The position numbers were made by a program, and so were the translations under genes. The notes under the pieces are model-generated. The model did no database searches, was not told the DNA's origin, and worked only from the letters and a program-made list of their open reading frames with translations. A DNA stretch of 64,000 bases from an uncultured Acidimicrobiaceae bacterium (GTDB taxonomy: Bacteria > Actinomycetota > Acidimicrobiia > Acidimicrobiales > RAAP-2). The stretch is taken from NCBI GenBank assembly GCA_963849155.1, contig CAWKGL010000003.1, positions 32,123 to 96,122 on the forward strand, in the 5' to 3' direction. Positions within the stretch are counted from its first letter, which is position 1; every line of letters starts with the position of its first letter. Of the stretch, positions 38,542 through 40,000 are shown in pieces.

Positions 38542-38774
38542 TCAATCCTCGGCGAGCGCCGCGAACTCGCGCTTGACGTTCTTGTACCAGGACATCGCCC
38601 CCAGGGGATTCTTCCATCGGCCCCTCATGTCTTCCCGCGCAGCGCCGTGCGTCGCGTCGCCGCTCGCCACCTCGGCCTTGAGGTGGCGGTCCTGGTACGT
38701 GATCACGTCATCGGCGCTCAGCGTGGTGCGCGAGGTCACGGTCCACCGAGCTGTCGACAGGTCATGGTCTTCAT
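38542..38774 (-). pseudogene. Frameshifted small protein gene (MKTMTCRQLGGP..., DUF1059-like)
   Basis: A GGAGAGG SD precedes ATG 38774. MKTMTCRQLGGP hits TGA at 38736, and the C-terminal part (SADDVITYQDRHLK...KREFAALAED) continues in another frame. The family assignment is from memory. Confidence 0.6.
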
Positions 38775-39001
38775 GGTTCGTCCTCTCCGACCCGCGCAGA
38801 CAGTGCGGACCGACGCTACCGATACGGGTGCAGTGGACCTGGAGTCACACACGACGAACCGGTAGCTCACGTGCCGTCGAAAGCCATCGACGACCGCACT
38901 GAACGAAATGTTCGTTTCAGTTCGAGAGGATTCGTGGTCCAAACGTGCCCGAACGACAACCGTTGGGTGTCAAATGACCAACACACGTCGACAAGAACAT
39001 A

Positions 39002-39024
39002 ATAGTACAGATTTGTACTATACT
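39002..39024 (+). promoter_or_regulatory. Inverted-repeat operator overlapping a TATACT -10 element
   Basis: ATAGTACA-GATT-TGTACTAT is a perfect 8-bp inverted repeat (39002-39021). TATACT (39019-39024) sits 6 nt before GTG 39031. Confidence 0.7.
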
Positions 39025-39030
39025 AGTCAC

Positions 39031-39354
39031 GTGGTGAGTGGAGACTTAATCAAAGAGGCTCGCTTACGTGCCGGACTGACTCAAGCCGAATTGGGTGCGC
39101 GCCTCGGCAAGGCGCAGTCCGTGATTGCCCGCTGGGAACGTGACGACGCCTCACCAAGTCTTGAGACACTCCGAGGGGTCGTACGCGCATGTGGTTTCGA
39201 TCTCACGTTCTTCATGTCCAAATTTGACGACTCCAACGTGACGATTATTGACCAGCATCTTCGAATGACAACCGCCGAACGATTCAGCGATCTCATGACC
39301 CGGGTTCGGTTCCACGAGCAGCGTGAACAAAGGACGGCGAGACAGCGTGTCTGA
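39031..39354 (+). CDS. XRE/Cro helix-turn-helix protein (putative antitoxin/autorepressor)
   Basis: LIKEARLRAGLTQAELGARLGKAQSVIARWERDDASPSLETL; its stop overlaps the next gene's start region. Confidence 0.85.
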   Translation: MVSGDLIKEARLRAGLTQAELGARLGKAQSVIARWERDDASPSLETLRGVVRACGFDLTFFMSKFDDSNVTIIDQHLRMTTAERFSDLMTRVRFHEQREQRTARQRV

Positions 39355-39880
39355 CGTGGTCCCCTATCGCCCCGACGAAATCCTTGCGGCCCTCGAGCGA
39401 CACCAGGTTCTTTACGTCGTCATCGGTGGACTCGCCGCCGAACTGCGCGGGTCTCCCTACGTCACTCGTGACGTCGACGTCACACCCGCACGGACCCGTG
39501 AGAATTTCACGAGGCTCGCGGCAGCGTTGAGAGAACTCGACGCCAAGCTTCGGATTCCAGACGTGGAAGAACCTTTCGCGATACGACTTGACGAGCAAAC
39601 ATTTGGGCAAGGGACCACCTGGACTTTCGTGACCAAACACGGCTATCTAGACATCGCACTTCTTCCTGACGGCACACGTGGCTACGACGACTTGCGACGA
39701 TCAGCTACTCGAGAGCAGATCACCGACACCGTGACAATCTTCGTTGCCGCACTCGCCGACGTCATTCGCTCCAAAGAAGCAGCCGGCCGCGAAAAGGATC
39801 GCGCCGTGCTCCCGATACTTCGCCAAGTCCTCGAGCGCTCACGGACGGGGGATCGTGGCGACCAAGGAGTGGCGCTCTAA
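39347..39880 (+). CDS. Nucleotidyltransferase, pol-beta superfamily (AbiEii/MenT-like, putative toxin)
   Basis: YVVIGG....RG...VTRDVDV (GG plus DxD), GYLDI, and a C-terminal SKEAAGREKD. Confidence 0.7.
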   Translation: MSDVVPYRPDEILAALERHQVLYVVIGGLAAELRGSPYVTRDVDVTPARTRENFTRLAAALRELDAKLRIPDVEEPFAIRLDEQTFGQGTTWTFVTKHGYLDIALLPDGTRGYDDLRRSATREQITDTVTIFVAALADVIRSKEAAGREKDRAVLPILRQVLERSRTGDRGDQGVAL

Positions 39881-39926
39881 CTCTCAGACGTATCCTGGTC
39901 CACCAAAGGGGACCTGGGTCACGCAG

Positions 39927-40000
39927 TGGGCGCTAGAGGACTCGAACCTCTGACCTCAGCCGTGTGAAGGCTGCGCTCTAACCAACTGAGCTAAGCGCCC
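39927..40000 (-). tRNA. tRNA-Val (anticodon CAC)
   Basis: The reverse complement reads GGGCGCT...AGCGCCC-A with D arm AGCTCAGTTGGTTAGAGC, anticodon arm CAGCC-TTCACAC-GGCTG and T arm AGAGG-TTCGAGT-CCTCT. CCA is not encoded. Confidence 0.97.

Follow-up and report, generated by a model that had tools for sequence, protein, structure and literature searches.

A stretch of 64,000 nucleotides (hereafter the window; G000:C3:32123-96122) from a 2.1-Mb metagenome-assembled genome of the Acidimicrobiales type encodes a helix-turn-helix (HTH) protein of the XRE family followed by a minimal nucleotidyltransferase (NTase) with the Pol-beta fold. This gene pair is probably a self-contained, horizontally mobile toxin-antitoxin (TA) cassette, organized as a type II-style operon with a MenT-like toxin and an XRE antitoxin. 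An uncharacterized TA pair of an already familiar kind is the most likely identity because the closest characterized relative of the NTase is the tRNA-blocking toxin MenT1. The cassette in which the pair lies is mobile, has defined boundaries, and is docked at the 3' end of a valine tRNA gene. This is a new observation, missed in an earlier interpretation of the same DNA made from the letters alone (hereafter the sequence-only reading).

The nucleotidyltransferase and its HTH partner

The NTase contains the motifs G27-G28, T40-R-D42-V-D44, D102 (in LDI), and K143...R148-x-K-D151. Their conservation was scored on 91 diverse homologues showing 35-60% identity. G27, D44, and D151 are invariant, and T40, D42, D102, K143, and R148 are conserved in at least 90% of the homologues. 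The motifs GG, DxD, the Asp of LDI, and K...R.KD had been listed in the sequence-only reading, and all of them are present with residues that are either invariant or conserved at this level. The core pattern of Pol-beta NTases, hG[GS] and [DE]x[DE] together with a third carboxylate, is seen as G27-G28, D42-x-D44, and D102.

The NTase family is represented by 3,797 proteins matched in a collection clustered at 90% identity and by 4,663 representative clusters at 50% identity (E <= 1e-3). The window NTase itself falls below the cut-off of the Pfam family DUF6036 (PF19502), with 17.4 versus 23.6 bits and an E-value of 0.0042 over residues 20-65 only. Among the 91 relatives, Pfam matches with E < 0.01 were obtained to DUF6036 for 60 proteins and to AbiEii for six; other matches were to DUF2204 (29/91) and, weakly, to Aminoglyc_resit (18/91).

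The comparison of the family profile with solved structures gave Mycobacterium tuberculosis MenT1 (8an4/8an5/8rr5) as the best match, with an E-value of 2.3e-5 over residues 16-164. The AlphaFold2 model of the window NTase (predicted local distance difference test score, pLDDT, 95.5; predicted template modelling score 0.89) shows an NTase fold, and a Foldseek search against PDB ranked MenT1 first (8an5, 8an4, and 8rr5; E = 3.7e-7; template modelling score, TM, 0.58-0.63). The next ranks were occupied by the uncharacterized protein TM1012 (2ewr; E = 1.8e-5), the lincosamide resistance enzyme LnuA (4fo1; E = 6.4e-5), and the aminoglycoside resistance enzyme ANT(2'')-Ia (4wqk/5cfu; E = 6.2e-4), in this order.

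In the profile alignment, TRDVDV of the window NTase is aligned with TRDVDI of MenT1, and T40, D42, D44, and K143 correspond to T39, D41, D43, and K137 of MenT1, respectively. D41, K137, and D152 of MenT1 are essential for toxicity and tRNA nucleotidylation, while D43 aids metal-ion binding (PMC10435456, PMC11375011). T39 is the site of antitoxin-induced auto-phosphorylation, and its counterpart in MenT3 is S78 (PMC11375011). T40 of the window NTase occupies the phospho-acceptor position, that of a Ser or Thr two residues before the first catalytic Asp.

Kinship to the AbiE and MenAT systems had been suggested in the sequence-only reading. It holds insofar as MenT1 is the best relative, but the NTase does not belong to the Pfam family AbiEii/DUF1814; the nearest family is DUF6036, below its cut-off, and the antitoxin is of a different type. 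A PADLOC search, named there as a check, returned no match for the NTase, and a generic HTH domain was the only match for the pair.

The upstream open reading frame (ORF) matches Pfam HTH_3 with an E-value of 7.7e-15. The HTH domain covers residues 7-61 and is followed by a conserved C-terminal extension (residues 62-107). The orthologues begin with ATG at the position matching the GTG start codon in the window. The two ORFs share the overlap sequence GTGTCTGA, and the GC content of the pair is 0.52-0.58, compared with 0.65-0.70 in the flanks.

The sequence-only reading had described this overlapping, AT-rich gene pair together with a leaderless TATACT promoter and a perfect 8-bp inverted repeat, and all these features are indeed found. 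The arms of the repeat are ATAGTACA at 39002-39009 and TGTACTAT at 39014-39021, separated by the spacer GATT. An 8-bp palindrome is not remarkable by count alone, as 36 perfect 8-bp inverted repeats are present in the window against about 24 expected. The repeat is significant because its position is fixed: in about 70 loci its left end lies at -28/-29 from the start codon, over a TAnnnT box. The repeat at this position typically matches over 6-8 bp, compared with 4-5 bp in control windows of the same sequences. All nine same-genus loci and nearly all of 73 loci from public genomes have the TAnnnT box itself at the same spacing of 6 nt from the start codon.

The repeat is therefore real and conserved in position, but its perfect form is specific to one subfamily, and most orthologues have an imperfect one. 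The perfect form, TAGTACA-N4-TGTACTA, was seen in about 18 loci, and the imperfect form, ATATAGCA-N4-TGTACTAT, in most of the remaining loci. Distant members of the family have symmetric sites of other sequence at this place, such as ATAGC-N6-GCTAT, AAGCGCA-N4-TGCGCTT, and GCAGATCTGC. Such co-variation of the two arms is expected for the operator of a dimeric HTH protein. The arrangement corresponds to that of type II TA modules: the antitoxin gene comes first, the genes are small and overlapping, the antitoxin has a DNA-binding domain, and the predicted operator covers the promoter.

The two genes behave as one unit. Of 80 loci, 78 have the HTH gene as the immediate upstream neighbour of the NTase gene, and in the remaining two a contig end interrupts the locus. 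Purifying selection on both genes is strong, and their rates of evolution are equal: for the HTH and NTase genes, respectively, the median ratio of nonsynonymous to synonymous substitution rates (dN/dS) is 0.083 and 0.085, and the median dN is 0.085 and 0.086. Close orthologues were found in nine of 24 same-genus genomes, while the rest have none or only distant paralogues. Any match to the pair was seen in 26 of 41 genomes, with up to five paralogues, and one genome contains five copies. This accessory, patchy, multi-copy, and mobile distribution is a trait of type II TA modules.

The same pair is also encoded on plasmids of two cultured actinobacteria, Mycolicibacterium rufum JCM 16372 (L100; NZ_CP092428.2, 129550-130355) and Miltoncostaea oceani (L101; NZ_CP064357.1, 537131-538003). 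It is annotated there as a "helix-turn-helix transcriptional regulator" and a "hypothetical protein", and nothing more. A phage origin was considered and rejected, with no match by tblastn in 50,697 phage records.

About 20 clusters contain natural single-chain HTH-NTase fusions, in which the C-terminal extension of the HTH protein and all catalytic residues are intact (P0130, P0156, P0273-P0282, P0287, P0305, P0310, P0322, P0335, P0359, and P0381). They are not artefacts of assembly, because one of them is located on a 5.4-Mb contig. In the model of a fusion (pLDDT 88), the C-terminal segment of the HTH protein forms two helices (residues 68-77 and 81-104) that lie between the HTH domain and the NTase domain.

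Cassette boundaries, tRNA docking, and cassette arrays

The features of the locus are listed in Table 1. The 28-nt core of the left boundary, designated as REP, differs from the consensus GTGGACCTTGAGTCACACAATAAGAACC by four mismatches in the window, and in 29 of 79 loci the consensus precedes the HTH start codon by about 198 nt. A copy of about 20 nt of the start of REP, which reads AGTGGACCTGGAGTCACACA from position 38832, is found again as AGGGGACCTGG-GTCACGCA at 39907-39925 against the tRNA 3' end. From these flanking REP-like repeats, the cassette is delimited as 38833-39925, which is 1.1 kb long and includes two genes only. The same type of right end recurs elsewhere: it abuts a tRNA-Leu gene in L017 and a REP copy in L020 (position 6061). 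A duplicate of the tRNA-Val 3' end within the window, in the manner of a classical att site, was rejected, as no shared 11-mer points to one; the true flanking repeat is the REP-like one of about 20 nt.

Table 1. Features of the HTH-NTase cassette and its tRNA docking site, in window coordinates.
Feature	Position	Strand	Description
Left cassette boundary	38815-38866		Imperfect palindrome GCTACCGATACG ... CGAACCGGTAGC; inverted repeat I12, direct repeat D12
REP core	38833-38860		28-nt core GTGGACCTGGAGTCACACACGACGAACC, inside the left-boundary palindrome
Cassette-specific conserved non-coding region	38861-39001	+	Holds box CCCGAACGACAACCGTTGGGTGTCAAATGACC at 38947-38979
Putative operator	39002-39021		Perfect inverted repeat ATAGTACA-GATT-TGTACTAT; overlaps the -10 box
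-10 hexamer of leaderless promoter	39019-39024	+	TATACT; ends 6 nt before the start codon
HTH gene	39031-39354	+	XRE-family HTH protein, 107 aa; putative antitoxin/autorepressor; GTG start at 39031
NTase gene	39347-39880	+	Minimal Pol-beta-fold nucleotidyltransferase, 177 aa; putative MenT-like toxin; GTG 39347, TAA 39880
Right cassette end	39893-39925		TCCTGGTCCACCAAAGGGGACCTGGGTCACGCA; hairpin (I13) and partial direct REP copy (D12); abuts the tRNA 3' end
tRNA-Val(CAC) gene	39926-40000	-	ARAGORN and Rfam (72 bits); convergent with the NTase gene; cassette docking site

Docking at tRNA genes is a recurrent property of these cassettes. In 35 of 80 loci the NTase gene is followed by a convergent tRNA gene, which in 19 cases lies no more than 250 nt from the stop codon; no co-directional tRNA gene was found downstream of the NTase gene in the 80 loci. 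Nine kinds of docking tRNA were recognized: Val-CAC, Val-TAC, Val-GAC, Ala-CGC, Ala-GGC, Leu-CAG, Leu-CAA, Lys-TTT, and Met-CAT. The comparison of flanks showed that the slot between a YitT-like gene and tRNA-Val(CAC) is filled with differing DNA in different congeners.

The end of the preceding cassette and REP together form an imperfect palindrome of about 50 bp, GGTTC...|GTGGACC...GAACC. The conserved half of this palindrome, which begins with GTGGA and ends with AAGAACC, loosely resembles the 3' half of a tRNA. Between the boundary and the promoter, a non-coding stretch of about 170 nt is conserved only in HTH-NTase cassettes (26 aligned loci) and includes the almost invariant box CCGAnnGnCGACCGTTGGGnnTCAAATG. 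No conserved ORF was found in this stretch. A structured RNA upstream of the promoter was considered and rejected: Rfam gave no match other than the tRNA, RNAfold returned z-scores of -0.12 and -0.28, and RNAalifold yielded no consensus structure.

REP occurs three to nine times in other genomes in co-oriented clusters, and a control with the reversed pattern was never matched. It is restricted to the genus, being present in 14 of 36 congeners and in none of 24 genomes of other families. In the locus L020 (2447-6088), five REP copies bound four cassettes: an HTH-NTase pair, a MazE-like pair, HicA (E = 1.1e-16) with a HicB-like protein on the opposite strand, and a ribbon-helix-helix (RHH) protein with Fic/Doc (E = 5.4e-12). 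The position of the pair among such bona fide TA cassettes (HicA/HicB-like, RHH/Fic-Doc, and MazE-like) argues for its assignment as a TA module. Wherever an array locus includes a tRNA gene (L092, L094, L097-L099, and L102), REP points to the tRNA gene, which is convergent.

The HicAB cassette end is joined to two different partners. In the genomes G006, G014, and G043, the end ...CCCGGTTCnTATTCTGnTCnGGA is joined to the tRNA-Val(CAC) end GTGGGCGC, and in L020 the same end is joined to REP GTGGACC instead; the junction is therefore placed at GGA|GTGG. This cassette end with alternative partners is the clearest evidence for cassette exchange.

Two scars were observed at such tRNA ends. Next to tRNA-Val(CAC) in L105 (G005:C74) there is a 12-nt tandem duplicate of the tRNA end, GTGGGCGCTGCA|GTGGGCGCTGCA, and in L013 (3796-3807) a 12-nt fragment of tRNA-Val lies between a cassette end and REP. 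These scars fit past recombination at the tRNA end.

It is a tentative but serious possibility that the pair belongs, as a single unit, to an undescribed system of gene-cassette exchange that spans the genus and carries mostly single TA operons. In such a system, a cassette would start with the 28-nt pseudo-tRNA-like site GTGGACCTTGAGTCACACAATAAGAACC and end with a half-site containing GGTTC, and recombination would take place at ...GGA|GTGG... between cassettes or with the 3' ends of tRNA genes (Val, Ala, Leu, Lys, and Met). No tyrosine recombinase or integrase was found in or beside the arrays and their flanks, and a linked integrase was rejected as the mover of the cassettes. As the co-oriented arrays have no cassette-borne or array-linked integrase, an unlinked recombinase would act in trans.

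One array-bearing genome contains only two Xer-like genes and a fragment. A mechanism by Xer and dif is conceivable for the cassettes, because the XerC/D-like genes are the sole tyrosine recombinases common to all genomes checked, but it is unsupported, as the candidate dif-like site (G000:C1:96316) is unlike REP. This site, GATAATGTACGTTATGT at G000:C1:96316-96332, may serve in chromosome dimer resolution; no other sequence in the genome comes close to the canonical dif core. An identity as an integron gene cassette was also rejected: the outer repeats are GGTTC ... GAACC, a tRNA gene heads the array, and no tyrosine recombinase adjoins it.

Between the YitT-like gene and the cassette there is an ORF of 65 aa on the minus strand (38542-38739), for which Pfam gave no match. 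Three congeners (G006, G011, and G012) conserve its DNA at a level of 68-72%, at unrelated positions, and the ORF may represent one more small gene of a mobile or accessory nature.

Proposed assignment as a toxin-antitoxin pair and alternatives

If the pair is a TA operon, a dimer of the XRE protein, through its N-terminal HTH domain, would repress the leaderless transcript by binding to the inverted repeat at the -10 box. The two-helix C-terminal extension of the HTH protein would bind the NTase and keep it inactive, by occlusion of the active site, by auto-phosphorylation of T40 in the manner of MenA1, or by both. The XRE antitoxin might neutralize the MenT-like toxin by inducing auto-phosphorylation of T40, and each natural fusion might act as an auto-inhibited toxin made of one chain. 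By analogy to MenT1, the free NTase would add nucleotides to the 3'-CCA ends of tRNAs, leading to a stop of aminoacylation and translation. The payoff for the element would be stabilization of the cassette or the array and possibly phage defence.

Several points weigh against this assignment. The NTase has no match in NCBIfam or PADLOC, and none to the Pfam family AbiEii/DUF1814 (PF08843) even at E <= 1. Its TM to MenT1 is only about 0.6, and the Foldseek search also returned the resistance enzymes LnuA and ANT(2'')-Ia. In the profile alignment, the invariant D151 is aligned with D149 of MenT1, and the position of MenT1 D152 is occupied by V154; the correspondence of motif IV is ambiguous because D151 pairs with D149 and not with the essential D152. 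The identity among orthologues, 75-99%, is unusually high for a TA module. Simple degradation of the antitoxin cannot operate in single-chain fusions. To our knowledge, the known MenA and AbiEi antitoxins are not XRE proteins, and the antitoxin encoded here is therefore of a different type.

An alternative that we consider unlikely is that the NTase is a regulated, non-toxic enzyme with another target, such as phage nucleic acid or protein or the HTH protein, and that the pair constitutes a two-gene defence or sensor module in which the XRE protein is both a transcriptional and an allosteric regulator of the NTase. The recurrent single-polypeptide fusions suit a regulated enzyme and favour this alternative somewhat, as do the high conservation of the orthologues and the lack of NTase matches to hidden Markov models of known TA or defence systems. 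It is opposed by the nature of the closest solved and characterized relative, a toxin that modifies tRNA and shares its catalytic and phospho-acceptor residues with the NTase. The array neighbours are classical TA pairs, and the operon is typical of type II, with the antitoxin gene first, overlapping genes, and a putative operator over the promoter.

The Foldseek matches to 4fo1 and 4wqk/5cfu raise another alternative, that the NTase modifies aminoglycosides or lincosamides as the ANT(2'') and Lnu enzymes do, with a mobile cassette as its carrier and the XRE protein as its repressor. The NTase equals the ANT(2'')-Ia and LnuA class in size, Aminoglyc_resit matches occur, if weakly, within the family, and resistance genes are classical cassette cargo. 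This alternative is nevertheless improbable: the window NTase has no match to Aminoglyc_resit (PF10706), MenT1 outranks LnuA and ANT(2'') by both sequence and fold, and the T-x-D-x-D phospho-acceptor and the K...R..D motif are traits of MenT and AbiEii. The tight pairing or fusion with an HTH protein, the several paralogues per genome, and the neighbouring cassettes, which carry TA pairs only, are also unlike a resistance gene.

It is very improbable that the NTase is an MNT-type antitoxin (type VII, MntA/HepT) whose HEPN toxin has been lost or is located elsewhere, with the HTH protein merely a regulator: the NTase is small and minimal and has the GG...DxD signature of MNT proteins, but no HEPN gene is present in the cassette or its flanks, the boundaries enclose just two genes and the same two-gene unit recurs in 78 of 80 loci, there is no match to MNT or NTP_transf_2, and MNT structures are absent from the Foldseek matches. 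The lack of a HEPN partner had already been remarked on in the sequence-only reading, and no HEPN family is found in the pair or its neighbours. Its proposal of an uncharacterized NTase-toxin module likewise gains support from the profile and fold match to MenT1, the conserved residues, the pairing in 78 of 80 loci, the conserved putative operator, and the TA neighbours, all of which are computational indications of a putative toxin.

MenT and AbiEii toxins, recently characterized, stop translation through extension of tRNA acceptor ends. The NTase family is unnamed in Pfam, NCBIfam, PADLOC, and RefSeq, and it would extend the MenT/AbiEii mechanism to a minimal enzyme of 170-180 aa with a classical XRE antitoxin. 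The natural fusions could reveal how the antitoxin docks on the toxin and whether auto-phosphorylation is induced. Culturable sources that are not pathogenic exist, such as the plasmid pair of M. rufum JCM 16372 (NTase homologue WP_052429202.1), and the prediction is therefore directly testable. An actinobacterial, tRNA-anchored cassette array with no integrase of its own bears on the spread of TA genes and on integron-like capture outside Proteobacteria.

Comparison with known systems

MenA1-MenT1 (Rv0078B-Rv0078A) resembles the window pair in several respects. The NTase is small (about 180-200 aa) and consists of a single Pol-beta domain, T-x-D-x-D and the catalytic Lys are conserved (K143 corresponding to K137), the antitoxin gene lies immediately upstream, and the host is an actinobacterium. 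The two systems differ in that the NTases share only about 20% identity with a TM of about 0.6, and the window NTase is not found by the Pfam AbiEii model. Natural antitoxin-toxin fusions exist in the HTH-NTase family, which is another difference from MenA1-MenT1. The window antitoxin consists of an XRE-HTH domain and a C-terminal extension, whereas MenA1 is a protein of 68 aa with no DNA-binding domain (PMC10435456).

AbiEi-AbiEii and MenA3-MenT3 (COG5340 and DUF1814; type IV/VII TA, abortive infection) share with the window pair a DNA-binding, autoregulating antitoxin encoded upstream of an NTase toxin, as well as the four-motif NTase signature including the C-terminal K...R...D motif. AbiEi is, however, a winged-HTH protein of COG5340 and not an XRE protein, and COG5340 applies to MenA3 and MenA4 as well. 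AbiEii and MenT3 are about 250-300 aa long with extra C-terminal elements, compared with 177 aa of the window NTase. The PADLOC models of AbiE gave no match to the pair. Judged from these sequence and structure comparisons, the module probably works like MenAT and AbiE but with a new type of antitoxin, composed of an XRE-HTH domain and a helical tail.

The nearest Pfam families, DUF6036 and DUF2204 (e.g., TM1012, PDB 2ewr), likewise consist of uncharacterized minimal NTases, for which we know of no described function or partner. In the literature searched, DUF6036 is not mentioned, and the sole mention of DUF2204 concerns an unrelated protein.

The cassettes themselves are similar to CIME-like accretion at tRNA att sites, to integron and CALIN arrays, and to the pdif modules of Acinetobacter: small, site-bounded TA modules are stacked in the same orientation, the modules are exchangeable between positions, and no recombinase is encoded within the cassette. 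The attC cores of integrons are R''/R' (RYYYAAC ... GTTRRRY), and an IntI integrase heads the array. The site described here is an imperfect palindrome of about 50 bp with a pseudo-tRNA-like half, not attC or dif. In a further difference from integrons, the arrays are anchored at the 3' ends of several tRNA genes, and no IntI or linked integrase was found. The cassette platform is more unusual than the module itself and shares ground with the accretion already described at tRNA att sites.

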